Under the pieces are notes generated by a model that worked only from the letters and a program-made list of their open reading frames with translations, had not been told where the DNA came from and did not search any database. DNA of 57,799 nt from Planctomycetota bacterium. Its GTDB lineage: Bacteria; Planctomycetota; B15-G4; JADJEK01. The translations under genes were made by a program, and so were the position numbers. Shown piece after piece: positions 10,828 to 33,400 of the stretch. How positions within the stretch are numbered: position 1 is the stretch's first letter; each line of letters starts with the position of its first letter. The stretch spans positions 1 to 57,799 of the forward strand of contig JBGAIQ010000034.1 in NCBI GenBank assembly GCA_044225365.1. Direction: 5' to 3'.

Positions 10828-13800
10828 ATGATCGACCGCAAGGCGTTGCTCGCCGATCTCGAGAAGTTGCTGGAGAAACTCGAGGATGATTTCCGCGCTC
10901 ACCTCGAGGCGGCACCGGAGGCCAACGAAAGAGTCGCGGCGGACTACCTCGCGGCGAAGGCCGCGGGCCGCACCGCGCAAACCGAGAACACCTTTCGCGA
11001 CGAACAGGTCACGCAAGCTGCAGTCGCCTGGATCCTCGCCGCCGTCTTCGTGCGCTTCCTCGAGGACAACGACCTCGTGACGGAATCGCCGGGCGATCCG
11101 TGGCCGCGCATTTCCGGGCCCAACGCGCCGAGCGATCGCTTGCGCCGCGCGAAGGACTCCCAGACGCTGTTCTTCCAGCAGCACCCGAAGGAGAGCGATC
11201 GCGAGTTCCTGCTCGACATTTACAAAGCCGTCGCGCGACTACCCGGAATGTCCGCGCTCATTGACGAGACGACGAACCCGCTGTTTCGCTACGTGCCGAG
11301 CGCCGACGGCGCGACCCTCCTCCTCGAGTTCTTCCGCAAGGTCGATCCCAGCTCGGGGGCGATCGTCCACGACTTCACGGACCCGGAGCTGCGCACTCGC
11401 TTTCTTGGCGACCTCTACCAAGACCTCTCGGCCGTTGCGCGCGACAAGTACGCGTTGCTCCAGACTCCCGACTTCGTTCAGGACTTCCTGCTCGATCGCA
11501 CGCTCGAACCGGCGATCCGTGAATTCGGCCTCGCCGAAGCGACGCTGATCGACCCTACTTGCGGCTCCGGTCACTTCCTGCTCGGGGCGTTCGAGCGGCT
11601 CGTCGAGCAATGGCGTCGCGCGGAGCCAGGCACGAACGTTCGCGAGCTCGTGCGCCGCGCTCTCTCGCAGGTCTCTGGCGTCGACATCAATCCGTTCGCG
11701 ATCGCGATTGCGCGCTTTCGCTTGCTCGTCGCGGCGATTCAGGCATGCGGGATCCGTCGACTCGTCGATGCGCCGGACTTCAAGTTCGATCTCGCGGTCG
11801 GCGACTCGCTGCTTTTCGGAAGGCGTCCACGGCACGGAAGTGGAGTGCAGCGAGATCTCTTCGACGATAAGTTCACGCATCACTACGCGAGCGAGGATCC
11901 GGAAGCCGTACGGCGAATCCTGGAGCGAACCTACTCGGTCGTGGTCGGCAATCCTCCCTACATCATCGCGCGCGATGCCGCGCTGAATGCGGCGTATCGC
12001 GCGCGGTTCGAGAGCTGTCACCGCAAATTCTCGCTTGTCGTTCCGTTCGTTGAGCGGTTCTTCGATCTCGCTCATCACGCCAACTCTGCGAATGAACGAG
12101 CAGGCTATGTCGCGATGATCGCTGCGAATGCGTTCATGAAGCGCGAGTTCGGCAAGAAGCTCGTCGAGTCTTACTTACCCAACTACGACATGACATGTGT
12201 CGTTGACACTTCAGGCGCGTACATTCCCGGCCACGGCACGCCGACCGTCCTGCTCCTGGCGCGCGACCGTTGGCCCGTGGCGAAACACGTTCGGGCAGTG
12301 CTTGGCATCCGCGGTGAGCCGGGTACACCCGAGGATCCCGCGCGCGGACGTGTCTGGTCAGAAATTGTCGAACACATCGAGCAACCAGGATTCGAGGGTT
12401 CGTTCGTCTCGGTCGCGGACATCGCTCGCGAACGATCGAATTCGCATCCGTGGTCGATGGGTGGAGGCGGTGCCGCGGACCTGCGAGAGCAGTTGGACGA
12501 AGACGCGTCGGCCGTGCTCTCGCAATCGGCTGACTCGATTGGCTTCGGAGCGATCCTCGGCGAGGACGACGCGTTCGAGCGGCCGATTGGCTCGCCATCG
12601 TTGCGGCGTCTCCCGGCAGCCAATCGACGCCCGCTGATCGTTGGTGATCATGTTCGGGATTGGTGCGCCGAGTACTCGTCCGAAGTGTTGTTTGCGTATG
12701 ACCAACGAATCGAACTCGTCGATGACCCCGCCATTCGAGCGTGGCTCTGGACGAATCGCACAATCCTTGAAGGCCGCGCAGATTTCTCCAATAGGTCGTA
12801 CCGTGAGGCCGGCCGCCCGTACTGGGAATATCACCAGATCCCAGTCGAACGGAACCGCACGCCGCTCTCGATCACGTTTGGCGAAGTCGCCACTCACAAC
12901 CACTTCGTCCTCGACCGCGGCGGCAAGGTCTTCAAGCAGACCGCGCCCGTCATCAAGCTGCCGGCCGGAGCGAGCGAGGAGGAGCATCTCGGCCTGCTCG
13001 GGATCCTCAACAGCTCGACGGCGTGTTTCTGGTTTCAGCAGGTCTGCCACAACAAGGGCGGTCCTGGTGGCGCGAACTCCAAGGACGAGAAGTGGCACGA
13101 CTTCTACCAGCTCAACGGAACGAAGCTGGAAGTGCTGCCGCTCCCGGTGAGTCGGCCTTACTCGCGCACGGCACGACTCGACGAACTCAGCGCGCGGCGA
13201 GCGAAGTCTGCCCCCGGTTCGATTCGCACGACCGAACTTCCTTCCGCCGCTCGACTTCAAGAAGCGCGGCAAACGTACGACGAGCTGTTCTCGCGGATGA
13301 TCTCCGAGCAAGACGAGCTCGACTGGGAGTGCTACCGGCTCTACGGCCTCGTCGACGAAGACCTTTTCCTGCCACCCGGTGCAGCTCCGCCGCTCCGACT
13401 CGGAGAGCGAGCCTTCGAGATCGTCCTCGCGTGCAGGCTCGCCGCGGGCCAGATCGAGACCAAATGGTTCGAGCGCCATGGCTCGACGCCGATCACCGAA
13501 ATTCCCGCGCACTGGCCAGACGCGTACAAGAAGCTCGTCGCTCGTCGCATCGAAGTGATCGCGAGCAACGCCAACATCCGCCTCATCGAGCAACCCGAGT
13601 ACAAGCGCCGCTGGAACCAGGAATCGTGGGAAGATCAGGAACAGCGCGCGCTGCGCTCCTGGCTCCTCGATCGTCTCGAGGATCCCAAGCTCTGGCCGCG
13701 CGGCCCGAGTGCGAGGAGTGCGACGGGCGGCGAACCTCTGCTTCGGTCGACCTCCGAGCTCGCAGATCTCGTCCGCGCCGACCGCGACTTCCATCAGGTC

Positions 13801-14475
13801 GCCGAGCTCTACGCGGGCCGTCCCGACTTCGACCTCTCCGCCGTCGTTCGTGAGCTGGTCGAATCCGAGGCCGTGCCGTACCTACCCGTGCTGCGCTACA
13901 AGGACTCGGGGCTGCGAAAACGCGTCGATTGGGAGAAGACCTGGGAGTTCCAGCGCAAGGAAGACGCGATCGACGTCCTAGGTCTCTCCGCCGCCGACGC
14001 GAAGGCGAAGAAGAAGTCCGAGATCGGCGACATCGCCGTGCCGCCGAAGTATGGATCGGGGGACTTCCTGAAGGCGACCTACTGGCGCTTGCGCGGCAAG
14101 CTCGACGTCCCGAAGGAGCGCTTCGTCGCGTATCCGTTCGCGTCGAAGGACACCGACCCGTCGCTCGTGATCACGTGGGCCGGCTACGACCATCTCGAGC
14201 AGGGCAAGGCGCTCGCCGCGTGGTACGTCGCCCGCAAGGAATCCGACGGTTGGCCGAAGGAACGTCTACAGCCACTTCTCCTCGGTTTGCTCGATCTCTT
14301 GCCCTGGATCCACCAGTGGCATCCCGAGGTCGACCTGCAGCTCGGCGAGACGATGGGCAAGTACTTCAGCGGGTTCATCGACGAGGAAGCGCGGAGCCTC
14401 GGGTTGACGTTGGAGGAGTTGCGGAAGTGGACGCCGCCGGAAAAGGCGCGTGGCCGGGGGCGCAAGAAGTCATGA
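10828..14475 (+). CDS. pglX: BREX type 2 N6-adenine DNA methyltransferase PglX
   Basis: TRFLGDLYQDLS..YALLQTPDFV, motif I DPTCGSGHFL, motif IV VVGNPPY, AYIPGHGTPT, YWRLRGKLDVPKERF; follows pglW. Confidence 0.95.
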   Translation: MIDRKALLADLEKLLEKLEDDFRAHLEAAPEANERVAADYLAAKAAGRTAQTENTFRDEQVTQAAVAWILAAVFVRFLEDNDLVTESPGDPWPRISGPNAPSDRLRRAKDSQTLFFQQHPKESDREFLLDIYKAVARLPGMSALIDETTNPLFRYVPSADGATLLLEFFRKVDPSSGAIVHDFTDPELRTRFLGDLYQDLSAVARDKYALLQTPDFVQDFLLDRTLEPAIREFGLAEATLIDPTCGSGHFLLGAFERLVEQWRRAEPGTNVRELVRRALSQVSGVDINPFAIAIARFRLLVAAIQACGIRRLVDAPDFKFDLAVGDSLLFGRRPRHGSGVQRDLFDDKFTHHYASEDPEAVRRILERTYSVVVGNPPYIIARDAALNAAYRARFESCHRKFSLVVPFVERFFDLAHHANSANERAGYVAMIAANAFMKREFGKKLVESYLPNYDMTCVVDTSGAYIPGHGTPTVLLLARDRWPVAKHVRAVLGIRGEPGTPEDPARGRVWSEIVEHIEQPGFEGSFVSVADIARERSNSHPWSMGGGGAADLREQLDEDASAVLSQSADSIGFGAILGEDDAFERPIGSPSLRRLPAANRRPLIVGDHVRDWCAEYSSEVLFAYDQRIELVDDPAIRAWLWTNRTILEGRADFSNRSYREAGRPYWEYHQIPVERNRTPLSITFGEVATHNHFVLDRGGKVFKQTAPVIKLPAGASEEEHLGLLGILNSSTACFWFQQVCHNKGGPGGANSKDEKWHDFYQLNGTKLEVLPLPVSRPYSRTARLDELSARRAKSAPGSIRTTELPSAARLQEARQTYDELFSRMISEQDELDWECYRLYGLVDEDLFLPPGAAPPLRLGERAFEIVLACRLAAGQIETKWFERHGSTPITEIPAHWPDAYKKLVARRIEVIASNANIRLIEQPEYKRRWNQESWEDQEQRALRSWLLDRLEDPKLWPRGPSARSATGGEPLLRSTSELADLVRADRDFHQVAELYAGRPDFDLSAVVRELVESEAVPYLPVLRYKDSGLRKRVDWEKTWEFQRKEDAIDVLGLSAADAKAKKKSEIGDIAVPPKYGSGDFLKATYWRLRGKLDVPKERFVAYPFASKDTDPSLVITWAGYDHLEQGKALAAWYVARKESDGWPKERLQPLLLGLLDLLPWIHQWHPEVDLQLGETMGKYFSGFIDEEARSLGLTLEELRKWTPPEKARGRGRKKS

Positions 14476-17638: not shown

Positions 17639-17644
17639 GCACCA

Positions 17645-17687: not shown

Positions 17688-18030
17688 ATGTATTACTTGA
17701 TTCAAATCATGGCTTTACTGACGCTGCTCGCGGACGCAAGCATCGGGGAATGAATCCACGCCTGGCTCGAGAGCGAGCATTGTGCGGACCCGACACGCCG
17801 CGCGACGGAGAGATTGCCCGTCAACGAGACGCCGAAAACTCTTGCTGGTCGGGAGACCCCTCTCGCGCGTCTCCGCCTTGTCTCTTGTGCTGCTTCGGCT
17901 TAGTCTCGTCACGGGCTCCGCGGAATCGCGTTCGAAGGGAACGGAAGGCGGTGCTTTCGACGAAGCTGGGTTGCCGAGGCGCATTTCGGCGCGTAAAAGA
18001 GTTGCTTTAGAAGTGAACTCGTCGGGGCCG

Positions 18031-18486: not shown

Positions 18487-18489
18487 GAA

Positions 18490-18906: not shown

Positions 18907-18922
18907 CCGCATCGAGGCCGAG

Positions 18923-19450: not shown

Positions 19451-19542
19451 TCGTCGTCGCGGACAGGCGAGATTGATCTCGTGGACGATGAACGCCGCGA
19501 CTCGCGGTACCAGCCTCGAGTTCAATCGAAGAATCGACCGCA

Positions 19543-19576
19543 GTCTGCGTCTAGGTATATATACCTAGACGCAGAC
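19543..19576. promoter_or_regulatory. Perfect 34-bp palindrome, putative AbiEi operator 1
   Basis: GTCTGCGTCTAGGTATA|TATACCTAGACGCAGAC, exact inverted repeat without a loop. Confidence 0.75.
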
Positions 19577-19663
19577 GTAGGAATCCGCCAACGACATCGG
19601 TCGCAAGGCGCTTTTCCAACGTGGTTTGTGTCTTGGAGACGTGCGTGATTGCGCTCGGCAGGC

Positions 19664-19687
19664 AGGCCAGGTATATATACCAGGCCT
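19664..19687. promoter_or_regulatory. 24-bp near-perfect palindrome with the same GGTATATATACC core, putative AbiEi operator 2
   Basis: AGGCCAGGTATA|TATACCAGGCCT (one mismatch), ending 1 nt before the ATG at 19689. Confidence 0.75.
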
Positions 19688-19688
19688 C

Positions 19689-20570: not shown

Positions 20571-21470
20571 TCCCGCTGCGTGCTCGACGACGAAGTCGAA
20601 GTACACGTCGTAGGAGAGCAAGGCACCAGAAACGGAGCCCTCGACCTCCGGCCATCCAGCACGATGGAACTCTCGGCCATTCGAGATCCGAGCGAGGAGC
20701 GTCAGCGGGACTTCCTTCACTTCAAAACTTGCCCGGACCAACTCGTGAATGTCCGGATCCCGAAAGTCCACCTCGCCGGCGGACACGATCGCATGAATGT
20801 CGTAGAAATCGCGAGCTCGCGGCGCCTTGTTGCGACGCTTCGAGTACTCCGGCATCTGCTGGCAAAGCGCGCGGAGCTTTTCGACGGCGATCAACTCCGG
20901 CGCGCACACGCGCACCAGCAACCCATCCACGTCGCATTCGTTCATCGTGCCGCAGAACTCGTTCTTGCTGATCTCGATCTCCATCATGCGTCCCTGACCG
21001 GGACTCACCACCTCCGCTTCTGCAGACAGCCGATCGGGTCGCTTTGCGTGGCGTTCGCGGAGATCGCGGGTCGCCAACTTGAACGTCACGATGTAGCCCC
21101 CGGCTCTCGCCACTCCGACGTGTTTCGGTTTGTGCGCGAACTTGTAGTCGACGACATGGAGCTTCAGCCGGAGGAACTCCTGTTCAAGCGCAATCCGAAG
21201 TTGCTCGCGTGCGGCTCCCGCATCCGCGAAATCGGACTCGAGCGAGTAGTCGACGTCCTGGGATGTCCTGGCGCCAAGATCGTGTACGAGCCGCAGGGCG
21301 TTCCCGCCCTTGAGGACGAGCACCTTCGACAGTTCGTCGTCGGCGGCGATCGCGCGAATGACCGCGCGGCGATACTCGACCAGTCGCGGGTCGGTCTGGA
21401 TCCGGCGGCCATCCGATGAGGAATCGAATTGGAGCGAACTTCGGGCAGTGACTCGACGCTTCTTCGCCAT
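20538..21470 (-). CDS. Type IV TA toxin, AbiEii/AbiGii-family nucleotidyltransferase
   Basis: LVLKGGNALRL..RTSQDVDYS (Pol-beta motif), IAVEKLRAL and RARDFYDI. Confidence 0.88.
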   Translation of the reverse strand: MAKKRRVTARSSLQFDSSSDGRRIQTDPRLVEYRRAVIRAIAADDELSKVLVLKGGNALRLVHDLGARTSQDVDYSLESDFADAGAAREQLRIALEQEFLRLKLHVVDYKFAHKPKHVGVARAGGYIVTFKLATRDLRERHAKRPDRLSAEAEVVSPGQGRMMEIEISKNEFCGTMNECDVDGLLVRVCAPELIAVEKLRALCQQMPEYSKRRNKAPRARDFYDIHAIVSAGEVDFRDPDIHELVRASFEVKEVPLTLLARISNGREFHRAGWPEVEGSVSGALLSYDVYFDFVVEHAAGLEPLWTIDPP

Positions 21471-21577
21471 GGCACGAAGTCGTACCACGAACTCGGTCAG
21501 CGTTCGAGACCGCTCGCCACGCGGATCTCGCTCGTCCGGACTGGGTCGCCTTCGTCCGGCGCGGTAGTGCGCGAGGC

Positions 21578-21611
21578 TCTCTGATATCGGAGAATTCTCC
21601 CATATGAGAGA
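21578..21611. promoter_or_regulatory. Two tandem 16-bp palindromes TCTCnnATATnnGAGA in the abiEii/pglY divergent region
   Basis: TCTCTGATATCGGAGA (21578-21593) and TCTCCCATATGAGAGA (21596-21611), 18-bp period. Confidence 0.65.
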
Positions 21612-21856
21612 ATCAGCTCTCGTGCTGATGCTCGTTGCCAGCGGCTCGAAGCACCGGAGGGGACTTCGGGCGGTACACGCGACGCTCCTGTCGGTGCATT
21701 GCGGGTGAACGAAGCTGTCGACGCTTCCGCTGCGAGATAAGATTGCGCCGAACTGGAGATGGCCCGAACGAACTGGCGCGACGCTTCGACCTGAACGGGA
21801 TTGACCCCGGCGATGGAGTATGGGAAAACCGCGACCTCCGACAAGGGAACGAATCG

Positions 21857-24800
21857 ATGACCGAAACGCTGCTCCGTGACCTGATCGCGATCCCCGAGCG
21901 AGTGCACAAGGGCGACTTCGTCCTGAAGCTCACCGAGGGTGTCGCGCACGGCGACGAGACCGTGCGCGAGTACGTCGTCACGGAACCGCTCGCCAAGAAT
22001 TTCGACCAGGCGCTTGGGCTCATTCGCTCGGCGGTCGAGAACCGGACGAGCAAAGCGGCTTACCTGCACGGCAGCTTTGGCAGCGGCAAGAGTCACTTCA
22101 TGGCGATGCTGCATCTTTTGTTGCAGCACGATGCAGGAGCGCGCGCGGTTCCCGAACTCGCCGGAGTGGTATCGACCCACTCGGGCTGGCTGCAGGGCAA
22201 GCGGTTTCTCCTCGTGCCCTACCACATGATCGGGGCGCGAAGTTTCGAGCAGGCGCTGGTCGACGGCTACTTGCGCACGATCGAAGTGAAGCACCCTGAT
22301 GCACAGTCTCCGGCAGTGTTCCGCGCCGAAGCACTGTTCAAGGACGCCGCGGGACTCCGCTCGACGCTCGGTGACGCTGCGTTCTTCGCAAAGTTGAATG
22401 CGCGTGCCGCAGCGTCGAGTGCGTCGAAAGCAGGCGGTTGGGGCGCGCTGGATCAGGGTTGGGATGTCGCCACCTACGCCGCGGCGGTTTCGGCCGGTCC
22501 TCATGCCGACGAACGCCGGCGGCTCACACGTGACCTGGTTTCACAGTTCTTCCCCTCGTACGCGAAGGCGAGTGGCGACGACTCCTACCTCGACATGGAC
22601 GACGTCTTGCTCGAGCTGTCGCGCCATGCGAAGTCTCTCGGCTACGACGCGCTCATACTCTTCCTCGACGAGTTGATTCTCTGGCTCGCGAGTCACGTCG
22701 CCGACAGCGCGTTCATCGGACGCGAGGCGCAGAAGGTCGCGAAGTTCGTCGAGTCCGGCACGACGATGCGGGCCTGCGCAGTGATCTCGTTCATCGCGCG
22801 ACAGCGCGATCTGCGCGAACTGATCGGCGAGCATGTTCCAGGAGCGGAGAAACTCGGCTTCACGGACGTTTTGGACTATGCGCGTGGCCGGTTCGACACG
22901 ATCAAGCTCGAGGATCGAAACCTCGCGGCGATCGTCGAGAAGCGCTTGCTGAAGCCGAAAGATGCAGCCGCACGGGAAGCGATCGATCGCGCGTTCGAGC
23001 GAGTCGAGAAGGTCCGTGACACGGTGCTCACGGCGTTGCTTACCCGTGACGGTGATCGAGCGACATTCCGTCGGGTGTACCCGTTCAGTCCGGCGCTCGT
23101 ACAGGTCCTTGTCGCCGTCTCTTCTGCGTTGCAGCGCGAGCGAACGGCGCTCCGCGTCATGCTTCAGTTGCTCGTCGATCAACGCGATCGGCTCGAACTC
23201 GGTCAACTCGTGGCTGTCGGCGACCTCTTCGACGTGATCGCCGAAGGCGACGAGCCCTTCACCGACCAGCTTCGCTCCCAATTCGAGAACACGAAGAAGC
23301 TGTGGCGCACGAAGCTGCTGCCGATGCTCGAGGATTTGCATGGCATTCGGTACGAGGCGGCCAGGATCGCTCCCGCTGACGACGCGAAGGCACGCGCCTT
23401 CCGCGGGGACGAGAGGTTGCTGAAGACGCTTCTCCTCGCGGCGCTCGTTCCCGAGGAAGAGTCGCTCAAGAATCTCACCGCGGGCCGCCTGCACGCTCTG
23501 AATCACGGCACGATCGTGACGCCCGTCGCAGGGCGCGAGACGCAAGCCGTACTCGCCAAGATGCGCGAGTTCGCATCGCGCGTCGGCGAGATCAAGATCG
23601 GCGAGGGATCCGATCCGACGCTGGCAGTTCAAGTCACCGGGGTCGATATCGAGCCGATCCTGGAGCGTGCGGCGTCCGAAGACACCAAAGCGGATCGGCT
23701 GCGGAGAATTCGCGACACGATCTACAAGCGAGTCGGGGTATCGCCTGGGGAGTTATTCAATGCCTCGTTCCCCTGGGAATGGCGAGGAACAGCTCGAACG
23801 GTCGATGTCGTCTTCGGAAACGTGCGGGAGCTTTCGACGGACGCATTTCGCGTCGACGGCGATCGATGGAAGATCGTCATCGACTATCCCTTCGACGAGA
23901 TGGGTCACTCCGCACAGGACGACATCTCGCGCATCGATGACCTGCGCGGTCACGAAGTTCGCGACCGCACCGTCTGCTGGATTCCGAGCTTCTTCTCGAA
24001 CGAGATGCTTACGGATCTCGGTCGGCTGGTGAGGGCGGAACGAATCCTCACGGGAGAACGATTCCGGACCTTCACCGAAGCGCTGTCGGACGTGGATCGG
24101 CAAGCTGCAAAGCTCTTGCTCGAAAACCTGCGCTCCCAGCTCGACAACAAGCTGCTGGTCGCGATCGAGGCTGCGTACGGCTTGCGTGAACCACCGCCGC
24201 GGTTGCTCGACGAACCACTCGATCCGACTCTCCATCTGCACGTCCTGTGTCCTGGTGTCTCGCTGCGACCGCCGGTAGGCGCGGACCTCAAATCCGCGTT
24301 CCTCCAGCTCCTCGATCAGTTGATGTCGTGGCAGTACTCAGCGCATCCCGAGTTCAAGCGGCTGGTCAAGACGAGCGAGTTAAAGAAGATCCTCGAAGTT
24401 GCGCACGCCACGAACGCCGACCCTCAACATCGCAGCACGCCAGAGGCGTCGTTTCGGCCGATCCTGCGCGATATCGCGGGACCCTTGGGTCTGGGCGAGC
24501 AACACGAAGCGGCGTTCCTGTTGAGTGACCAATGGAGAACGAAGCTCTTGAAGAAGGCCGCCGCCGATGAGGGAAGCCTTACCGTTAGAAAGCTGCGTGA
24601 GTTCATCGATGACCCGAAACCCATGGGTCTGCCGCGCGAGGTGCAAAACCTACTCATTCTCGTGTTTGCCGAGCAGACCGGGAAAGCGTTGGTCGGACTT
24701 CGGGCCGACGGGGCGTCGATCGAGCAGATCGATGACGACTTGGAACTCCGCGATCAGAAGCTCCCATCACAATCCGCGTGGAAAGCGGCGCGAGACCGCG

Positions 24801-25558
24801 CCGCAAAGCTGTTCGGCATCGCTCTTGGCCGCGACTTCGTGAGCGCGCACAATGTTGCAAGCCTTGCGGCGGAACTTGGAGAGAAAGCTCGTCAGCATCG
24901 CGAGGATGCGAATCTGCTTCTTCCGGAGCTGAAGAAGCGATCCGAACTCCTAGGTTGGAACCAGAGTAGTGCACGCTTGAAAACGGCGGCGGAAGCACTT
25001 CGTGTGGTCGAACAGCTCCTGGATTCGCCGGACTCGGACCGCCTCGACGCGCTCGCGGGATTTTCGTTTGCGGTCCCGCTTGAGTCGATCGGTACTAGTC
25101 TCAGTAGGGCCGGCAGCGTTCGCGCCGTACTGAAGGAACCGAACAGTTGGGATTTCGTCGACCTGGTTCGCGGCCTTGAAGACGGCCGACACGATCAAGC
25201 CATGAAGGCGATCGAATCGCTTCGCAGCGCATTCGAAGGCGACGAGTACGTTCTGCCACTCGAAGGGGCATTCCGCGAATTCACTCGCGTTGCGATGGGA
25301 CTCGTCAAACAGGCAGTGAGACACCCCGATCCTCCAGTGATTGAAAAGGGGCCGATTCCACCCCCACAGCAGGGACTCGCGGGCCGAATCCTGGAGAAGG
25401 GTGCGAAACAAGGGCTCTCGTTATCGGAGGCCGAAGAGCTGTTCCGTCGATTGACACGAGCGCTGGGCGAAGGCCAAAGCAAACTCGACATCGAATGGAC
25501 CGTTCGCGAAAGGGCCGTTGAAAAGGCAAAGGATCGCCCCGGGGAGAAGGGGCAATGA
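21857..25558 (+). CDS. pglY: BREX type 2 ATPase PglY
   Basis: MTETLLRDLIAIPERVHKGDFVLKL, Walker A YLHGSFGSGKSHF, Walker B LILFLDELILWL, SFIARQRDL and VYPFSPAL. Confidence 0.93.
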   Translation: MTETLLRDLIAIPERVHKGDFVLKLTEGVAHGDETVREYVVTEPLAKNFDQALGLIRSAVENRTSKAAYLHGSFGSGKSHFMAMLHLLLQHDAGARAVPELAGVVSTHSGWLQGKRFLLVPYHMIGARSFEQALVDGYLRTIEVKHPDAQSPAVFRAEALFKDAAGLRSTLGDAAFFAKLNARAAASSASKAGGWGALDQGWDVATYAAAVSAGPHADERRRLTRDLVSQFFPSYAKASGDDSYLDMDDVLLELSRHAKSLGYDALILFLDELILWLASHVADSAFIGREAQKVAKFVESGTTMRACAVISFIARQRDLRELIGEHVPGAEKLGFTDVLDYARGRFDTIKLEDRNLAAIVEKRLLKPKDAAAREAIDRAFERVEKVRDTVLTALLTRDGDRATFRRVYPFSPALVQVLVAVSSALQRERTALRVMLQLLVDQRDRLELGQLVAVGDLFDVIAEGDEPFTDQLRSQFENTKKLWRTKLLPMLEDLHGIRYEAARIAPADDAKARAFRGDERLLKTLLLAALVPEEESLKNLTAGRLHALNHGTIVTPVAGRETQAVLAKMREFASRVGEIKIGEGSDPTLAVQVTGVDIEPILERAASEDTKADRLRRIRDTIYKRVGVSPGELFNASFPWEWRGTARTVDVVFGNVRELSTDAFRVDGDRWKIVIDYPFDEMGHSAQDDISRIDDLRGHEVRDRTVCWIPSFFSNEMLTDLGRLVRAERILTGERFRTFTEALSDVDRQAAKLLLENLRSQLDNKLLVAIEAAYGLREPPPRLLDEPLDPTLHLHVLCPGVSLRPPVGADLKSAFLQLLDQLMSWQYSAHPEFKRLVKTSELKKILEVAHATNADPQHRSTPEASFRPILRDIAGPLGLGEQHEAAFLLSDQWRTKLLKKAAADEGSLTVRKLREFIDDPKPMGLPREVQNLLILVFAEQTGKALVGLRADGASIEQIDDDLELRDQKLPSQSAWKAARDRAAKLFGIALGRDFVSAHNVASLAAELGEKARQHREDANLLLPELKKRSELLGWNQSSARLKTAAEALRVVEQLLDSPDSDRLDALAGFSFAVPLESIGTSLSRAGSVRAVLKEPNSWDFVDLVRGLEDGRHDQAMKAIESLRSAFEGDEYVLPLEGAFREFTRVAMGLVKQAVRHPDPPVIEKGPIPPPQQGLAGRILEKGAKQGLSLSEAEELFRRLTRALGEGQSKLDIEWTVRERAVEKAKDRPGEKGQ

Positions 25559-28218
25559 CGGTCACACCGCTGCGCGAAGCCGAATTACGAGGCTGGCTGC
25601 GGTCCGTGGTCGAAAAGAACCTTCGTGGGAAGCGCTTCGTAGCGATTCGGCACCCAGGTCCATGGCTTGGCCCGCCCGAGCTTCGGATTGGGGATCAGAC
25701 CTACGACGTCGCGGTAACTCGCTCTGCTCTAGAAGTGCGACAAGAACTCGCCCGTGCTCGACCCGCGGATCGGGGTGTCGTAGTTCTTACCGACCGATCG
25801 GATACCGACCTTGGACAGGACGTACTCGTACGACTCGCGAAGGAGCGAGTGAATACTCTGGTTCCGTGGGAATCGGTGAAGCAATTGTTCAAGGCTCACT
25901 CGATCGATCCCGCAATTCAAGGTCGCGATAGTGAATGGATGGCTCGCGAACTTCTCGAGGCCGCACCGGTCGACGGTTTCGATCCCGTCGCAAGCGGCAT
26001 GCTCGACGAAGACACGGCATGGCAGGCGATAGCAAAACACCGCATTCGATTTGCCGAGCGACGTCTGTCATTGTCGACGTTGCTGCAATGGACGACCCAG
26101 CCCGGAGTCGGACCTCTCTTCGCCGCGGCGTCACCACCGTTCAGAAGGGCGTTTCTCGCACGTTGCGAGAGAGTGCTCGGTGGCGGTGGACGCTTGCTCG
26201 CGGTGATTCTCGATGCGGGCCGGGTTGCGGAGTCGGTGGCGATCGGACTCGCGTGCGACGTGATCTTCAGCGAGGGCTTCGTCGGTCTTGCACCTCGAGA
26301 AATCGCAGTGGCGCGTCTTGAAGCGAGCCTCGGTAATACGACGGTTGATCCTATGGCGGGGCGCCGCCTTGCGGCGGCTTCAATCGATGTCGTGCGAGTG
26401 CTTCGCGCAACTCCCAACGCGATCGTTGAGCCGATTCTTGCGTCGGCCGAGGAATGGCTCGACAAGCTCAAGATCCGCGATCACGCGTGGCGTAGTAGTG
26501 TCCTCCCAGCTGGATTCGATCAGCGCCGCGAGCGACTTGGTGAGGAGATCGTTTCGCTTCTCGCGGGCGACTCTCAGATCGATGCTGTCGATCGAGCAGC
26601 AGAACTATGTTGCGAGCATGATCGCGCCGGACAGCGAACATCCGACCGCGAGGCCATCTTGATGGCAGGAAGATTGACGCGCTTCGTCGGTGCGACTCGT
26701 AAGGCAGAGCCAACGGGACTGATCGACCTGGCGCGGCGATACGCGAATGAGAGCCTATTCGTCGATCTCGCGCGCGACTCGCTCCGAAGATCGGTCTCGC
26801 AACCGAAGCGGTGGGTGAATGCGGCGGTCGAACTGCTCGCCGGCGCAGATCGGTACCGGGGAGAGGAGAACCAGCGGTTCGCTACCGCGTTGGCTGAGGT
26901 CGAGCGAACGTCGACGTCGCTAGCCGCGGGAGTCCTTCGCATCGAGAATGTGCTCGACGCTGTCGTGGTTCCCATCGCTTCGTTGCGGCCGGTACTGATG
27001 CTCGTCGTCGACGGGATGAGTCTCCCTGTACTCGAACAACTCGCGCGGGGAATGCGCGGCTACGGGCTGCACGAACTGCGGGCGGAAAGTACGCCCGGGC
27101 GATTGCTCGCTCTCGCGGCGTACCCGACCACGACGGAGTGCAGTCGAGCGAGTCTGCTATCGGGCGCACTTGAGTGCGGTGGCGAGGATCTCGAGCGATC
27201 TCGGTTCGAGTCGCATCCAGGTCTCACCGCGACCTGCAAAAAAAGTCTCGCGCCTCGTCTCATCCACAAGAATGGACTCAAGGGAGAGTCCGGCGTCGGT
27301 CTCGCAGGATCGGTTCGCGAGGAGATCGCGAATGGCGGACGTCGCGTCTTGGGCATCGTGCTGAACGCTGTGGATGACGATCTGGCGAAGGGTGATCAGA
27401 TGCGAGAAGAGTGGCGCATCGACACGATCACGTCGCTTCCCGAAATCCTCGACGCGGCGCGTGAGGGTGGACGGGTCGTGATCATGACATCCGACCACGG
27501 CCATGTCCTCGAGCACGGGCAGACGCAGCGAACCCCGGCGGATGGCGGCGCGCGTTGGCGCCCTGGAACAGGAAAACTGGCGGAGGGAGAAATCCTTCTC
27601 CAAGGTCCCCGCGTGGCGAAGAAGTTCGGCGGCGCGGTGATCTTGCCGTGGAGCGAAAACCTGCGATATGGCCAGAGGCAGAACGGCTACCACGGCGGCT
27701 GCTCGACGCAGGAAGTAATCGTTCCCATCGCCGTCTTCACGACGCTGGATGTAGAACCAGACTTGAAGGCGATTGGCTGGTCGTTGGCGCCGCCGAATAC
27801 TCCGTCTTGGTGGGAGTCGACGGAGATCCCTGTCGTAACTGGGGAGGAGCCACAGGAAATCGTCGAGAAAAGTCCACCGAAGGGGTCGCTCTTCGACAAT
27901 CGCATGCCAAGCGGCTCGCTATCCGATCGACTGATTGCCTCCGAACTGTACGCCAGGCAGAAACAGCTCGTCTCACGCGCCGCGCTGTCGGACGAAATGG
28001 TGAAGGCGATCGTCGATGCGCTGATGGCGCACGGCGGCACGATGACACGCACGGCGCTCGCACGGAAGTTGAACCTGGCCGAGGTCCGCGTAAACGGGTA
28101 TCTCGCGATCGTCACTCGTGTCCTAAACGTCGACGGCTTCGACATTCTTGGTTCCGATGCAGGAGGCGATGGGGTGCGGTTGAACCACGAGGCCCTCGAA
28201 GCCCAGTTCCAAGTTTGA
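25555..28218 (+). CDS. pglZ: BREX type 2 alkaline-phosphatase-superfamily protein PglZ
   Basis: LVVDGMS, YPTTTECSRASL, IMTSDHGHV and GYHGGCSTQEVIVP; ATGA overlap with pglY. Confidence 0.93.
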   Translation: MTVTPLREAELRGWLRSVVEKNLRGKRFVAIRHPGPWLGPPELRIGDQTYDVAVTRSALEVRQELARARPADRGVVVLTDRSDTDLGQDVLVRLAKERVNTLVPWESVKQLFKAHSIDPAIQGRDSEWMARELLEAAPVDGFDPVASGMLDEDTAWQAIAKHRIRFAERRLSLSTLLQWTTQPGVGPLFAAASPPFRRAFLARCERVLGGGGRLLAVILDAGRVAESVAIGLACDVIFSEGFVGLAPREIAVARLEASLGNTTVDPMAGRRLAAASIDVVRVLRATPNAIVEPILASAEEWLDKLKIRDHAWRSSVLPAGFDQRRERLGEEIVSLLAGDSQIDAVDRAAELCCEHDRAGQRTSDREAILMAGRLTRFVGATRKAEPTGLIDLARRYANESLFVDLARDSLRRSVSQPKRWVNAAVELLAGADRYRGEENQRFATALAEVERTSTSLAAGVLRIENVLDAVVVPIASLRPVLMLVVDGMSLPVLEQLARGMRGYGLHELRAESTPGRLLALAAYPTTTECSRASLLSGALECGGEDLERSRFESHPGLTATCKKSLAPRLIHKNGLKGESGVGLAGSVREEIANGGRRVLGIVLNAVDDDLAKGDQMREEWRIDTITSLPEILDAAREGGRVVIMTSDHGHVLEHGQTQRTPADGGARWRPGTGKLAEGEILLQGPRVAKKFGGAVILPWSENLRYGQRQNGYHGGCSTQEVIVPIAVFTTLDVEPDLKAIGWSLAPPNTPSWWESTEIPVVTGEEPQEIVEKSPPKGSLFDNRMPSGSLSDRLIASELYARQKQLVSRAALSDEMVKAIVDALMAHGGTMTRTALARKLNLAEVRVNGYLAIVTRVLNVDGFDILGSDAGGDGVRLNHEALEAQFQV

Positions 28219-28240: not shown

Positions 28241-29977
28241 ATGACGAACTATGAATCTCCGCAGGATCCGCACGCTCCGGTGGGGCTGTTCGACGCACCG
28301 CTCGACTTGGATCGAATCGTCGCGTATTGGCGGCAGCTTCCGGAGTCGGCGAGCGACGCCGACGAAGAGGCGAATATGCGCGAGATCGAGCGCGAGGGTC
28401 GGCGAATCTTCGACGCCGTTCGATTAGGAGCGTCCTCGATCGAGAACCTCGCGGACGATTTCGAGTACTTCGCGCAGGAACTAGCGAACATTCAGAGTCT
28501 CGAACCTGACGCGTTCGAGTTGTTCCGAAAGGACCTCCTGAGCCTCGAGGCGGATCCCGATCACGGCCGAACCTACGCGGTGAGTCTTGGTGGCGACCTC
28601 GAGCACTACGCTGAAGAATTGCTCTGGCTCCTCCGATGCTCGCGTGCGGATGCATTCCTTCCGACCGCGCGCTCGATCGGTGCGCACGCTATGGTCTGCG
28701 ATGCGAGAACGGATCCTGGCTTGGTAATCGCGATAGGAAACGCGCGAATCAAGAGTGCGTGCGAGCGCGCCGGGCTCAGCGTCGATCAAGCGTGGGACTT
28801 CGCGATGTGGCTCAGCCGCCACGAACAACTGCTGATTGGCGTCGACGATTCGCCTGGAGATCGCGCGGCGAAGGACTTGCTCTGGCAGCTCATGGCTCCG
28901 ACGGGGACTCGTCCCGATGTCGTGATCGATCGCGGAGGAGCCTCCGTGTTCGTCGAGCCCGGCATCGAGTTCGCAGACGACGTCGCCAAAGATCCCTACG
29001 ACATGCTCTCGAGTCAGTCAGCGCCGTGTCTAATCATTCGCGGCCGCGGCGAACGAGTTCGGGCTCGTTTCATGCTTGCGGCTGCAAACTGGGCGTGGGA
29101 CGAAAAAGACTTCTTCAAGAGCGGGTTCGGGCATGCGGTGGTGTGCGGCACCCTCTCACCACTGATGCATGCGTACGTACTCCAGATAAAACTGAGAAGG
29201 CTGATTCCAGATCGAGTGCCCGCTCGAATCACCGTGAAGCATCGACCCGTTTGGTTGAAACGAGATGGTCGGAACGAAGAGCGCAAGCACGCTTGGCACG
29301 ACGCCATGAAAGCGCTCGGCATCCCGATCGTCGACGGCGCCGTCGTTCACGGGAATTTCGTGCCGGCGACTAGAACCTTTGCGGAACCTCGGCTCGTGGT
29401 GCGAAACAGCATTGTCCTCGAGCTGCTGGCTCGCACGGCATTCGAAGACTTCGCATATCTGGAGCTACTCGAGGAACTCTGCCCGGATGCGGGAAAGAAG
29501 ATTCGACATCACGGTGCGGAACCGGATGACCACGGACTCGAGATGGATGATGACGACGAAGACTGGGATGACGCGAGCGACGGCGACGAGTGCGAGATCG
29601 AGGCCGACGAGCCAGTGGCGACCATGGTCGAGATCGATGTCGCGCCGCGAATCGTGACGCCGCCAGCAATGACGGAACGGGTGCGCCGGCTTCTTTCTTC
29701 GAATGTTCTCTTACGCCAACGCGCGTTGCCTCCCCGTGCCACGCTCTCCGACGATCAGGTAAGCATGATTGTAGCGCTATTGGAGGACGGCGGAGGCTCG
29801 CTGACCATTCCGGCTCTCGAACGCCAAAGTGGCATCCCCAACACGCGCCTTCACGGGATGCTGGCTCTGCTTCGTCGCCTGTTGAACGTCGACGGGTCAA
29901 CGGTGCTGCGCATCGATGAGGAATCGTCCACGGTCGTCATCGACCTACGCCTCCTGGACGAACTGTTCACCGAATGA
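28241..29977 (+). CDS. Hypothetical protein with acidic linker and a C-terminal PglZ-CTD-like domain
   Basis: 578-aa ORF inside the operon; the last ~100 aa align by eye with the PglZ C-terminus; the N-terminal ~420 aa are unrecognised. Confidence 0.7.
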   Translation: MTNYESPQDPHAPVGLFDAPLDLDRIVAYWRQLPESASDADEEANMREIEREGRRIFDAVRLGASSIENLADDFEYFAQELANIQSLEPDAFELFRKDLLSLEADPDHGRTYAVSLGGDLEHYAEELLWLLRCSRADAFLPTARSIGAHAMVCDARTDPGLVIAIGNARIKSACERAGLSVDQAWDFAMWLSRHEQLLIGVDDSPGDRAAKDLLWQLMAPTGTRPDVVIDRGGASVFVEPGIEFADDVAKDPYDMLSSQSAPCLIIRGRGERVRARFMLAAANWAWDEKDFFKSGFGHAVVCGTLSPLMHAYVLQIKLRRLIPDRVPARITVKHRPVWLKRDGRNEERKHAWHDAMKALGIPIVDGAVVHGNFVPATRTFAEPRLVVRNSIVLELLARTAFEDFAYLELLEELCPDAGKKIRHHGAEPDDHGLEMDDDDEDWDDASDGDECEIEADEPVATMVEIDVAPRIVTPPAMTERVRRLLSSNVLLRQRALPPRATLSDDQVSMIVALLEDGGGSLTIPALERQSGIPNTRLHGMLALLRRLLNVDGSTVLRIDEESSTVVIDLRLLDELFTE

Positions 29978-29984: not shown

Positions 29985-31304
29985 ATGCTCAGTAGTCAAC
30001 GTCGTCGTGAGATCGTCGATGCCCTGCGAAGGGGCACGGTTCCTTCCCGCAGTCTGGATACGTTTGCCGTCGGGCTCGAGCGTTTCGCTCCGGCGATTGA
30101 AGACGAACTCGATCAAGTCTCCCGCGGATCTGCTGTATTCAAGGCAGTACGCGGCGACTACGGAAGCGGCAAGACCTTTTTCGCGAGGTGGATCCAGGAA
30201 ACCGCAAAGCGACGAGGATTCGTGACTTCCGAAGTGCAGATCTCCGACACCGAAACGCCGTTGCATCGGCTCGAAACGGTGTATCGAAGGCTCATCGAAC
30301 GACTAGGTACAACCGATCAATTACAGGGTGCATTTCGATCGATCATCGACGGCTGGTTCTTCACGCTCGAGCAAGACGTGCTCGCAGAAGGGACGATCGC
30401 CGAGACGGACACCGGAAAGCTCGTTCGTCGTGCGAACGAGTTGATGGAGAAACGACTCGGCTCGATCACTCGGACCGCTCCGGCGTTTGCTTCCGTTCTA
30501 CGCGGATACCGCGAGTGTCTAGAAGCTCGCGATACCGTCACGGCCGAGAGCTTGATTGCATGGCTCGCGGGACAACCGAATGTCGCCGCTGCTGCGAAGC
30601 GCATTGCGGGAGTGAAGGGCGAGATCGACCACTTCGGTGCGTTCTCGTTCCTCCAAGGTTTGCTCGTCGTGCTGCGAGACTCCGGACAGTCCGGACTGCT
30701 CCTCGTTCTCGACGAGGTAGAAACCATACAGCGCCAGCGGACGGATGTGCGTGACCGCGGTCTCAACGCGCTACGTCAGATCATCGATGAGGTCGACTCC
30801 GGTCGATTTCCTGGTCTGTACGTGATGGTCACGGGCACACCGGCGTTCTTCGACGGAACGCTCGGTGTGCAGCGTTCGCAGCCGCTCGCGCAGCGACTGC
30901 ACGTCGATTTTTCGACGGACTCCCGCTTCGACAATCCAAGGGCCGTGCAGATTCGGCTCGGGGGATTCGACATCGAGAGGTTGGGTCTCGTCGGTCGGAA
31001 GATCCGCGACATCTATGCGGATGGGAGCAACTCATCCGAGCGAATCCGAGGCGTCGTGGACGATGCGTACATCGACAAGCTCGCGATCGCCGTGACCGGC
31101 GCTCTTGGTGGCAAAGTGGGGATTGCGCCAAGGCTCTTCTTGAAGAAGCTGGTTGCCGATGTACTCGATCGCGTGGATCAGTTTGCCGATTTCGATCCAC
31201 GGCGAGACTACGCGCTCACGATGGCCGAATCCGAGCTGACCGACGAAGAGCGAGGAGCCCGAGAGCCGAAGAGTGCCGATGATATTCCATTGGACTTGAC
31301 GTGA
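29985..31304 (+). CDS. brxD: BREX system ATP-binding protein BrxD
   Basis: IVDALRRGTVP, Walker A VRGDYGSGKTFF, SEVQIS.TETPLHRLETVYRR and Walker B LLLVLDEVET. Confidence 0.92.
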   Translation: MLSSQRRREIVDALRRGTVPSRSLDTFAVGLERFAPAIEDELDQVSRGSAVFKAVRGDYGSGKTFFARWIQETAKRRGFVTSEVQISDTETPLHRLETVYRRLIERLGTTDQLQGAFRSIIDGWFFTLEQDVLAEGTIAETDTGKLVRRANELMEKRLGSITRTAPAFASVLRGYRECLEARDTVTAESLIAWLAGQPNVAAAAKRIAGVKGEIDHFGAFSFLQGLLVVLRDSGQSGLLLVLDEVETIQRQRTDVRDRGLNALRQIIDEVDSGRFPGLYVMVTGTPAFFDGTLGVQRSQPLAQRLHVDFSTDSRFDNPRAVQIRLGGFDIERLGLVGRKIRDIYADGSNSSERIRGVVDDAYIDKLAIAVTGALGGKVGIAPRLFLKKLVADVLDRVDQFADFDPRRDYALTMAESELTDEERGAREPKSADDIPLDLT

Positions 31305-33400
31305 CCGCCTTCGAGAGCCTTCACCCGGCCATTCAGTATCACATCGTGAATTCGCTCGGTTGGGCATCGCTCCGGCCGATGCAAGAGCGCTCGATCGAAC
31401 CGCTCGTCGCGGGAAGGCACGCGCTGATCATTGCGCCGACGGCGGGCGGGAAGACCGAAGCCGCGTTCTTCCCAATCCTCTCGAAGATGCTTGCGGAGGA
31501 ATGGAACGGAACGACAGTGCTGTACGTGTGTCCGTTGAAAGCGCTGCTCAACGACCTCGAGCACAGACTCTCGCGATACGCGGGGTACGTCGGTCGCCGG
31601 GTTCAACTGTGGCACGGCGACGTTTCGAATTCTGTGAAGGCTCGAGTTCCGTCCGAGCGCCCCGATGTGATTCTCACGACCCCTGAGTCCCTCGAGGTGA
31701 TGCTCGTTTCGCGAGACCCGGCACGGCGAGAGATGCTGCGAGACGTTCGAGTGGTGATCGTCGACGAACTGCACGCCTTTGCCGGGGACGATCGCGGATG
31801 GCATCTCCTCGCCGTTCTCGAGCGGATTGCACGTCTGTCCGGCCGCACGCTCCAACGAATTGGACTCTCGGCAACGATTGGCAATCCAAAAGACCTGCTC
31901 GCCTGGCTGATCGGAAGTAACGGCGGAGAAGGAGACGTAATTGCTCCTCTCGACGCCTCCGCCGTCGACGCAGACGTGGAGATCGACTACGTCGGAAACC
32001 TGGAGAACGCCGCGCTTGTGATCTCGAAGCTCCATCGCGGAGAGAAACGACTCGTTTTCTGCGACAGTCGAGCTCGAGTCGAAGAACTCGCAGCGCGCGT
32101 CCGAAATCTCGGCATCAGTACATTCGTGTCGCACGGCTCCCTCGCGCTCGAGGAGCGTCAACAGGCCGAGCAAGCGTTCGCGGAGGCACGCAATTGCGTG
32201 ATCGTCGCTACCAGCACCCTCGAGCTGGGTGTCGACGTTGGTGATCTCGATCGAGTCATCCAGATCGACGCACCGGCGACCGTGGCTTCGTTCCTTCAAC
32301 GCTCCGGCCGAACGGGAAGGCGACCTGGATCACGAAGGAACATGCTCCTCCTGACAACGACACCGGACGCGATGCTCCGTGCGGCCGCACTCGTTCGGCT
32401 CTGGAGGGGCGGCTACACCGAGCCGCTCGTGCCGCCGCCGCTTCCGTTTCATCTCTTTGCCCAGCAGACCCTCGCGCTCATTCTTCAATTCGGCCGAATC
32501 GGCCGCTCCGCCATCAAGGGTGCGATGGGCGGGGTTCCGCTTGCGGGTGGCATCTCCAATTCCGATCAGGACGCGATTCTCGAGCACATGATCGAGTCAG
32601 CGATATTGGTCGAAGACGCCGGCCTACTTCTGATGGGGCCGAACGGAGAAGAAACCTATGGCCACCGCAACTTCGTCGACGTCTTCGCAATCTTCTCGAG
32701 CCCGCCATTCTTCACAGTGATGCACGGTCGTGCCGAAATCGGCCAGGTCCACGAGCAGTCGCTTTTCACGAGCCGCGAAGGTGCGCCGATCGTTCTGACC
32801 TTGGCCGGTCGCCACTGGAAAGTCGAAGCGATCGAGTGGGATCGTCGAACGATTTCCGTCTCGCCGGCGCAAGAAGTCGGGCGATCGCGTTGGCTTGGGC
32901 TCGGTATGCCATCCCGTTTCGAGCACGCACAATCGGCAGCGGCGGTATTGGCTGGAGAGGATCCAGACTGCCGACTCACTCGAAGAGCGGGCGAATCCTT
33001 GGCCGAAGCACGTCGGGAGCATCCGTTCGTTCGCCCGGGACAGACGACCATTGTAATGAACGAGCGAGGAGTGCTGTGGTGGACGTTTGCGGGAATCCGC
33101 GCGAATACCCAGCTCGCGGGTCTTCAAGAAGCTGCGAGCTGCCCGTGGAAGGGCGAAGGCAATCACGTCGTGGTACTCTCCGAGCCCGCCGATGCGGAAG
33201 TGATCGATGATCGACTGCGCGAAGCTGGCGTGGAGTCTGTGCCAATCGCCGTCGATTCTCGAATCCGTGATGGAGTGAAGTTCAGCGAGTGCGTTCCCCC
33301 ACAGTTGATCGATCGGATGTTGCAGGCTCGGTGGCGCGATCCCCCTGCGCTCCGTTGGGTAGAATCGGCTCCGCGGAATGTCGTGATCGAACGCGAGTGA
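31301..33400 (+). CDS. brxHI: BREX type 2 Lhr-like SF2 helicase BrxHI
   Basis: APTAGGKTEAA, VIVDELH, IGLSAT, ATSTLELGVDVGD and QRSGRTGR; GTGA overlap with brxD. Confidence 0.9.
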   Translation: MTAFESLHPAIQYHIVNSLGWASLRPMQERSIEPLVAGRHALIIAPTAGGKTEAAFFPILSKMLAEEWNGTTVLYVCPLKALLNDLEHRLSRYAGYVGRRVQLWHGDVSNSVKARVPSERPDVILTTPESLEVMLVSRDPARREMLRDVRVVIVDELHAFAGDDRGWHLLAVLERIARLSGRTLQRIGLSATIGNPKDLLAWLIGSNGGEGDVIAPLDASAVDADVEIDYVGNLENAALVISKLHRGEKRLVFCDSRARVEELAARVRNLGISTFVSHGSLALEERQQAEQAFAEARNCVIVATSTLELGVDVGDLDRVIQIDAPATVASFLQRSGRTGRRPGSRRNMLLLTTTPDAMLRAAALVRLWRGGYTEPLVPPPLPFHLFAQQTLALILQFGRIGRSAIKGAMGGVPLAGGISNSDQDAILEHMIESAILVEDAGLLLMGPNGEETYGHRNFVDVFAIFSSPPFFTVMHGRAEIGQVHEQSLFTSREGAPIVLTLAGRHWKVEAIEWDRRTISVSPAQEVGRSRWLGLGMPSRFEHAQSAAAVLAGEDPDCRLTRRAGESLAEARREHPFVRPGQTTIVMNERGVLWWTFAGIRANTQLAGLQEAASCPWKGEGNHVVVLSEPADAEVIDDRLREAGVESVPIAVDSRIRDGVKFSECVPPQLIDRMLQARWRDPPALRWVESAPRNVVIERE

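Follow-up and report, generated by a model that had tools for sequence, protein, structure and literature searches.

In type 2 bacteriophage exclusion (BREX-2, or Pgl) operons, pglZ is ordinarily followed directly by brxD. What, then, is a further gene doing between the two, and why should it end in a second copy of the PglZ C-terminal domain? The question is raised by a 57,799-nucleotide stretch of DNA from a Planctomycetota bacterium (GenBank assembly GCA_044225365.1, contig JBGAIQ010000034.1), which was analysed whole and is referred to here as the window. It carries a complete BREX-2 locus in which an open reading frame (ORF) of 578 residues, named here ORF X or simply X (28241..29977, + strand), lies in the operon between pglZ and brxD. 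An original prediction, made from the sequence alone, had placed the gene there and had described an acidic linker followed by a PglZ-like last ~100 residues; both points hold. Our reading of X starts from what the locus and its relatives display: the architecture of the protein, its paralogy with the PglZ tail, its rarity, its position in the operon and the repeated capture of the same tail by accessory proteins. On the strength of structure modeling, we propose that the PglZ-type winged helix is a plug that docks on the ATPase BrxD, and that X uses this plug to hold a new domain, probably one without enzymatic activity, at the BrxD–BrxHI module; we regard this proposal as evenly poised between right and wrong.

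Architecture of ORF X and the shared PglZ-type tail

The reading frame of X is intact, with no internal stop codon. Its ATG, which has the sequence AAGGA 7 nucleotides to its 5′ side, lies 22 nucleotides past the pglZ stop, and the gene ends 7 nucleotides before the probable start of brxD. The protein can be divided into three parts. First: the N-terminal domain (residues 1–425, 28241..29515, + strand) is a predicted α+β unit for which no family or fold match was obtained in the searches given below. Second: an acidic, disordered linker (residues 426–474, 29516..29662, + strand) has a net charge of −20, includes the stretch EMDDDDEDWDDASDGDECEIE at residues 434–454, and is modeled by AlphaFold2 with a predicted local distance difference test score (pLDDT) below 50 over residues 430–474; the whole protein has a net charge of −39. 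Third: the C-terminal winged helix (residues 475–578, which with the stop codon occupy 29663..29977, + strand) is a paralogue of the PglZ tail. The full-length AlphaFold2 model, built from nine aligned sequences, has a pLDDT of 80.1 and a predicted template modeling score (pTM) of 0.70. It runs from a helix-rich start through an α+β core and the disordered segment 430–474 to a compact C-terminal unit at residues 479–577, where the order of helices and strands is that of a winged helix.

The tail is recognized by several independent comparisons. BLASTP aligns X 483–576 with PglZ 792–885 without gaps, with 36 of 94 positions identical (38%; E 2e-13 for the single comparison). Two PglZ profiles (E ~1e-17 to 2e-18) match the same region: PADLOC PDLC02565 aligns its positions 798–905 of 910 with X 469–576 (E 2.1e-18), and NCBIfam BREX_PglZ_2 aligns positions 770–889 of 890 with X 458–576 (E 1.4e-17). 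The 63 bits of the latter match are far under the whole-protein cut-off of 200 bits, so only the tail of X matches. When X was searched against its own genome, the two matches were X itself and the PglZ tail only, and the precomputed label PF25863.1 is found on X, on its relative P0003 and on PglZ proteins of ~900 residues that also bear PF08665. The two tails share an RRLLNVDG-type motif and the same secondary structure, and, judged by their 35–38% identity, they are old paralogues.

X itself is not a PglZ, judging from the profiles, which cover its last ~110 residues only; the PglZ phosphatase domain PF08665 gives no match to X in Pfam even at E 10. The shared tail alone could suggest that X is a decayed pglZ duplicate, a pseudogene remnant. 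Residues 1–430, however, lack PglZ similarity (the next BLASTP segment has an E of 0.37, and no PglZ domain is matched), and the frame is intact, the predicted fold confident and the homologues conserved. Since the likeness stops at the tail, a broken PglZ was excluded, and we assign the pseudogene reading a vanishingly small probability. The fusion is also not a recent duplication scar, as the original prediction had argued from the divergence of the copies and the open frame: P0003, which is 55% identical to X over the same order of N-terminal domain, acidic linker (net charge −28) and tail, conserves it. A second relative, P0004, is 47% identical to X and has no tail, but its contig is short.

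The tail shared by X and PglZ is, as modeled, a winged helix-turn-helix (wHTH). A comparison of X 476–578 with 48,161 solved chains in VIA-align returned many wHTH proteins at Z 7.6–6.4, the best being 2d1h_B (Z 7.6, root-mean-square deviation 2.9 over 84 aligned residues); a Z near 7 to this ubiquitous fold is in the common range for the tool and speaks for the fold class only, not for a ligand. DNA-binding winged helices of the MarR, ArsR, IclR, Fur and TFE types are among those that superpose on the X tail, a likeness of fold only, and X matched no regulator family in Pfam. Winged helices often bind DNA. The X tail thus combines a match to the last ~110 profile positions with a winged-helix fold, the two features by which a BREX-2 PglZ C-terminal domain is identified. 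The C-terminus of type 2 PglZ is described as a three-stranded wHTH in PMC12839542, which also puts forward sensing and the binding of DNA or macromolecules as roles for PglZ terminal domains.

A predicted seat for the tail on BrxD

One complex prediction was made, of X residues 12–578 (alignment of 9) with BrxD residues 1–431 (alignment of 20). The interface score ipSAE was 0.70, 0.71 and 0.70, and the best of three controls scored 0.00. Of 157 solved complexes, 116 attain the mark used, as do 2 of 215 mismatched pairs; because the alignments were our own, these rates apply here only roughly. At least 46% of the contacts are common to the runs, and the partner pLDDT is 73 or more. The model supports binding of X to BrxD but does not show it. 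All confident contacts of X fall in the tail (residues 496–500, 524, 533–536, 538–543, 545–546, 548–549, 551–553, 558, 560, 563 and 571), in a region formed by the third helix together with the beginning of the wing. The N-terminal domain makes no confident contact with BrxD in this model, and no conclusion is drawn from that. On the BrxD side, the contacts involve residues 5–6, 22, 78, parts of 109–130 and of 143–188, and 233–236, and are described as lying between Walker A (G57–T64) and Walker B (D243–E246). BrxD is an ORC/Cdc6-type AAA+ ATPase that carries neither a DNA-binding domain nor extra domains, according to the part of PMC12839542 that was available, and by our own mapping the contact region appears to match the ORC/Cdc6-type insert described there.

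Conservation of the tail was examined across 38 wHTH tails. Interface positions are more conserved (mean entropy 1.34, versus 1.75 elsewhere; 124 of 10,000 permutations were as low), with R499, L548 and N549 invariant, R546 and D551 at 92%, and R536 and G539 at 84%. Between an accessory tail and the PglZ tail of its own locus, or the closest one, identity at the interface is 44–63%, versus 32–45% elsewhere, in all seven of seven pairs, which are small numbers. A lineage-specific feature is the motif LNL(D/E)GY, which replaces LNVDG both in the accessory tails of two further genomes (G343 and G196) and in their own PglZ. The tails of X and PglZ in the window have identical residues at R536, G539, L541, A542, R546, L548, N549, D551 and G552, and the interface positions of BrxD include the invariant R6, T109, R118, D122 and W124.

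These features are consistent with a mechanism in which the PglZ-type winged helix would serve as a protein-docking plug, its third helix and wing seating on the part of BrxD that lies between the two Walker motifs. The same BrxD socket probably receives PglZ, and X would hang its N-terminal domain on the BrxD–BrxHI module via the long acidic tether. The original prediction had cast the PglZ tail as a docking module; the complex score of 0.70, with its contacts in the tail, and the presence of the tail on three kinds of accessory protein speak for that part, and relatives of X that sit in the same position without a tail speak against it.

Occupation of the same seat could also mean that X docks as a competitor or decoy, its tail filling the PglZ socket and thereby restraining or timing PglZ, or baiting phage proteins that target the PglZ tail. 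The nine interface residues identical in the two tails of the window would suit such a role, as would the strong overall acidity of X, and the Pgl components of S. coelicolor behave like a toxin/antitoxin set in the available part of PMC4365076. BrxD oligomers are expected, however (PMC12839542, in the part available), so that more than one socket may be available and X and PglZ need not compete. The acidity, moreover, is not conserved in the family, P0007 having a net charge of +2; a role for X as a general DNA mimic acting through its acidity was set aside on the same observation. We know of no phage inhibitor of the PglZ tail, and the data do not separate an added function from a blocked one. 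We consider a competitor or decoy rather unlikely.

The PglZ-type tail on other accessory proteins

Among 401 genomes of the window's phylum, 16 contained matches to a profile of the tail alone (alignment A5). Besides that of X, second tail copies occur in genomes G343 and G196, in both cases just downstream of pglZ, between pglZ and brxD. The proteins concerned are P0016 (G343; 293 residues, L015 8034–8915, − strand; PglZ-type tail, PADLOC E 6e-23) and P0017 (G196; 285 residues, L016 8049–8906, − strand; PglZ-type tail). Their host genomes belong to another taxonomic family, and a proline-rich linker precedes the tail. The N-terminal part gives a weak match to DUF3427 (E 2.5e-4, 20.8 bits), which is under the Pfam cut-off of 27.7 bits. 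DUF3427 is a putative modification-sensing domain of restriction enzymes in the accessible portion of PMC6765204, and P0016 and P0017 may be readers of modified DNA attached to BREX-2; their sequences suggest 'reader plus adaptor' proteins.

A third kind of tail-bearing accessory comes from Cellulomonas endophytica (L040 7161–8321), where residues 255–376 match the PADLOC PglZ profile with an E of 2.2e-19. This frame lies directly upstream of pglW-pglX, not beside pglZ; its start is probably later than annotated because the N-terminal ~100 residues are rich in arginine and proline. Upstream of it are genes for a Z1-domain protein and a UvrD-like helicase. The three kinds of accessory show no match to one another in their N-terminal parts, and the X-family profile matches neither of the two other kinds there. 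Together, P0016, P0017 and the Cellulomonas frame are tail-bearing BREX-2 accessories other than PglZ, close to what the original prediction had proposed to look for. In genome G178 (L017, G178:C230, 8337–11073, − strand), pglZ encodes 839 residues and the tail lies in a separate, overlapping frame of 117 residues, which in our own reading of the sequence would be an assembly frameshift or a naturally split PglZ rather than an accessory gene.

A maximum-likelihood tree of the 38 tails places the accessories apart from one another, and the accessory label needs at least three separate origins on well-supported branches. One comprises X and P0003 (support 100/98); a second, P0016 with P0017, adjoins PglZ tails from the same taxonomic family (98/99); the third is the Cellulomonas copy, nested among the PglZ tails of actinomycetes (100/98). 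Long branches make the exact origin of the X tail unsure. The co-occurrence of tail and BrxD (15 of the 16 tail-positive genomes have BrxD over the cut-off) was discarded as evidence of binding: it adds nothing, because both are simply parts of BREX-2.

A broader version of the docking proposal holds that the PglZ tail would plug PglZ into a socket of the BrxD AAA+ ring, and that accessories have copied the plug at least three times, thereby attaching sensor or adaptor domains to the BrxD–BrxHI motor. The attached domains would include that of X, 430 residues long, a small helical one, and the DUF3427-like part, a putative modified-DNA reader. We put this version forward tentatively, as a possibility that is somewhat doubtful in its full extent.

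A rival reading makes DNA, rather than BrxD, the ligand of the winged helix that X and PglZ have in common. On that view the predicted seat on BrxD would be an artefact, and X would either act at DNA as a sensor or regulator, recognizing whatever DNA feature the PglZ tail recognizes, or control the operon. The superposition of the X tail on DNA-binding winged helices (Z 7.6–6.4) and the joining of the tail to a weak match of a putative modification sensor (PMC6765204, in its accessible portion) agree with this. The Z values, however, are in the common range for the fold and do not indicate a ligand. In the complex model, BrxD covers the third helix, and the controls score 0.00; the tails, moreover, are close to neutrality (net charge −4 to +4; the X tail, at −2, follows a linker of net charge −20). 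On these grounds we hold a DNA-binding tail to be unlikely.

The N-terminal domain of X

Modeled alone in AlphaFold2 from a nine-row alignment, residues 1–430 reach a pLDDT of 88.3 and a pTM of 0.89, values that argue for one compact unit. Helices extend to about residue 218 and are followed by a sheet of approximately nine strands with flanking helices. Sequence comparisons of this region gave no family match in Pfam, NCBIfam or PADLOC, weak matches only in PHROGs (E 0.023 and 0.18), and a best E of 0.59 for its profile against PDB sequences. The Foldseek search that the original prediction had recommended could be run on a confident model and still returned nothing: the whole-X and N-domain models have no match in the PDB at E ≤ 0.001, nor does the N-domain in BFVD at the same threshold. 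VIA-align found none of the 48,161 chains at Z ≥ 5 (best Z 4.8, root-mean-square deviation 3.4 over 85 residues). Frataxin and secretion-chaperone-like sandwiches were considered as relatives of the α+β half and not accepted, at Z 3.2–3.8 only. The ESM Atlas held no usable match for X 1–430; its score for P0010 is 0.79. A missing family or fold match is no proof of a new fold; the domain is a candidate new defense-associated fold, because the family is seen in two different defense contexts.

The family is rare. Three proteins including X were found in a word-indexed collection of 5.8 billion, and a word-based search with the nine-row alignment recovered the same three and added none. Among 1.84 billion representatives, the N-domain profile found seven proteins at E ≤ 0.001, including a fragment of 62 residues. 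Neither a single-protein search of genome contigs with X nor two metagenome scans gave a relative. Taxonomically, the N-domain family occurs in 3 of 12 genomes of the window's family, 3 of 42 of its class and 3 of the 401 sampled in its phylum, and the genomes at every rank are the same three (G000, G006 and G008). Wherever the source gives a name, X homologues are called 'hypothetical protein'. Nine family members share 17 invariant columns, which in our own reading appear to form no recognizable catalytic motif.

A paralogue of the N-domain, 20% identical, lies outside BREX at the start of a contig of G008 (L014, G008:C230, 46–1329). Downstream of it, L014 1574–5473 is a long frame of which the C-terminal ~800 residues include a Walker A motif, GISGTGKT, and match PADLOC PDC-M26A (E 4e-28); the first ~480 residues of this frame look like non-coding read-through. 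The other motifs of the P-loop protein are ones that we take to be McrB-like. The island beside the paralogue also holds HNH, UvrD-like, SNF2, N6_N4 methylase and ResIII genes. As far as gene content tells, the N-domain family is found in two defense contexts, each time just upstream of a P-loop ATPase gene.

Within the docking proposal, the N-domain is most likely an added sensor or adaptor, not an enzyme. This role is favored because there is no catalytic signature, because relatives lack the tail, and because another ATPase adjoins the domain elsewhere.

The pglZ–brxD junction as an insertion slot

In loci from other species, the tail profile (a pattern scan with a three-row alignment) found 23 instances. 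PglZ tail and brxD are both present in 21 of these, without exception as abutting or overlapping frames that leave no room for another gene, which bears out the statement of the original prediction that canonical BREX-2 has pglZ directly followed by brxD; the 21 loci are not all independent, some being near-identical. The window's phylum behaves differently from these 21 loci, which come from other phyla and of which none has cargo at the junction. Among its 16 loci with PglZ tail and brxD on one contig, the matches are no more than 30 nucleotides apart in six (G038, G109, G178, G223, G242 and G318:C90), whereas 0.6–3.8 kb separate them in the other ten.

The cargo of these ten slots is varied. 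X-family genes occupy those of G000, G006 and G008, and the DUF3427-like proteins with a tail those of G343 and G196. In G318:C465 (L018 1374–2894), the slot contains a RelA/SpoT-like gene (Pfam E 3.5e-11) and a glycine-zipper gene, without a PglZ-type tail. Four further slots (L045–L048) were read by eye: G312 has an NPPY methyltransferase, apparently a split pglX; G093 a P-loop ATPase and a small partner; G399 a YVDD-motif protein that is reverse-transcriptase-like; and G165 a 163-residue protein. The tail is present in only three of the ten cargoes, and it is the tail, judged from these sequences, not the position, that marks out X and the DUF3427-like proteins. The homologues of X in G006 and G008 (~30% identity) sit in the same order pglZ-X-brxD with 4-nucleotide overlaps; they are ~430 residues long and have no tail, and the PglZ of both genomes keeps its own.

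Such a junction invites the view that the N-domain of X is a self-standing defense or cargo gene in an insertion hot spot, and that its tail is a by-product of recombination with the 3′ end of pglZ, of little meaning for BREX. The varied cargo in 10 of 16 slots of the phylum, the tail-less homologues and the N-domain paralogue in another defense island all accord with it. It fits less well that fusion and linker are kept across 45% sequence divergence, that conservation in the X tail falls on the positions conserved in PglZ tails, that this tail is an old paralogue rather than a recent copy, and that the tail was captured at least three times, once beside pglW rather than pglZ. We judge cargo with an incidental tail to be improbable.

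Four kinds of observation weigh against the docking proposal. First, the tail-less homologues of G006 and G008 in the same slot indicate that the N-domain family can do without the plug, and the paralogue of G008 lies outside BREX altogether. Second, with varied cargo in 10 of 16 loci, the slot is an insertion hot spot, and position alone is therefore no proof of BREX membership. Third, the modeled fold of the X tail is that of a common DNA-binding winged helix, and at 35% identity to the PglZ tail of its own locus it ranks 13th of 37, so that a lineage match is not shown for the X copy. Fourth, BrxD varies more at the interface than over its remaining positions (mean entropy 1.28 versus 0.86, core and surface pooled), the support for docking comes from one modeled pair, in silico, and this pair may have passed because it resembles the way in which winged helix and AAA+ module are arranged in ORC/Cdc6 proteins.

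The BrxD–BrxHI pair is also seen by itself. In L043 (G127:C36, 5068–8543, − strand) the two genes stand together with no PglZ, PglY or PglZ-type tail within the 19 kb examined, and the dyad therefore also occurs outside a recognizable BREX-2 locus.

Relation to known systems

Compared with the tail of BREX-2 PglZ, X residues ~475–578 are paralogous, with the same secondary structure and the same motif; the difference is that the X tail is not carried on a phosphatase and is instead preceded by an unrelated domain of 425 residues and by the acidic linker. The auxiliaries embedded in BREX loci that are catalogued in the available part of PMC12839542 are nucleases, HEPN proteins, Schlafen proteins and GmrSD-type enzymes. 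X resembles them in being an additional gene of a BREX operon, at a site that is filled with other cargo in related genomes; unlike these recognizable effectors, which are taken to act alone, it has no recognizable effector domain and carries a copy of a core-subunit domain. Modification-dependent restriction enzymes join a reader of the PUA or DUF3427 type to a nuclease (PMC6765204, in its accessible portion), and P0016 and P0017 resemble them in their weak DUF3427 match, here joined to the tail; they differ in that no nuclease domain was found in these two proteins, and the N-domain of X is not DUF3427-like.

A further comparison concerns the predicted contact itself. ORC/Cdc6-type AAA+ ATPases carry a C-terminal winged helix in the same chain. 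The complex model packs the winged helix of X on an AAA+ module of that clade, an arrangement that appears to be alike; for BrxD, the winged helix would come in trans, from PglZ or from X.

No settled picture exists of BREX assembly and signaling, and of the BREX types, type 2 has been studied least. The locus offers a concrete predicted contact between a PglZ-type winged helix and BrxD, specified to the residue in either partner, and suggests a design rule whereby accessories join BREX by carrying a copy of the docking domain of a core subunit. If the docking proposal is true, the PglZ effector would be linked to the BrxD–BrxHI ATPase–helicase pair, the conservation of the tail would be explained, and BREX-2 would possess a modular 'socket' that extends its recognition range and a route by which to gain new inputs. 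BREX-2 and the wHTH tail of PglZ are already described in PMC12839542. The part of that work available to us has no mention of BrxD docking by the PglZ tail or of accessories that carry the tail domain, and we found no published PglZ-tail/BrxD contact or tail-bearing slot accessory, although its supplementary neighborhood tables may list such genes. Within these limits of the source, the accessory in the pglZ–brxD slot with a second tail copy, the repeated capture of the tail and the predicted tail–BrxD contact appear to be new.

The BREX-2 locus of the window

Pfam, PADLOC and NCBIfam identify a complete type 2 BREX set of six genes, all on the + strand, between 6447 and 33400, with PglW, PglX, PglY/BrxC, PglZ, BrxD and BrxHI encoded together. 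The set begins with pglW (6447..10796), which encodes the NERD-kinase protein of BREX-2 (PADLOC PglW PDLC02512, E 0, 1396 bits, residues 12–1440), and pglX (10828..14475), which encodes the adenine methyltransferase (NCBIfam BREX_2_MTaseX, 1599 bits versus a cut-off of 400; also PADLOC PglX). The ATPase gene pglY/brxC (21635..25558) matches PADLOC BrxC-PglY PDLC02488 at E 0 and NCBIfam BREXATPasePglY with 1023 bits, under the cut-off of 1700 bits. It is followed by pglZ (25555..28218; 887 residues), with 717 bits for NCBIfam BREX_PglZ_2 versus a cut-off of 200 and an E of 1.5e-222 for PADLOC PglZ; the C-terminal wHTH covers residues ~780–887 (27892–28215, + strand). Downstream of X, the AAA+ ATPase gene brxD (29985..31304) has 644 bits for NCBIfam BREX_BrxD versus a cut-off of 350 and matches Pfam BrxC_BrxD at E 5.5e-138, and the helicase gene brxHI (31301..33400) matches PADLOC BrxHI PDLC02503 (E 4e-273) and Pfam DEAD and Helicase_C. 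The start of brxD is 29916 in the ORF list; the profile match begins at residue 25–26 of that frame, and the ATG at 29985, which stands behind GGGAG, is the probable true start.

Between pglX and pglY lie approximately 7 kb of other genes (14475–21635), among them a weak Gp49-like match (17782–18486), an AbiEi match (19626–20570, + strand) and an AbiEii match (20538–21488, − strand). AbiE pairs usually lie on the same strand, which makes the layout seen here, with the AbiEi and AbiEii matches convergent and overlapping by 33 nucleotides, an odd one.

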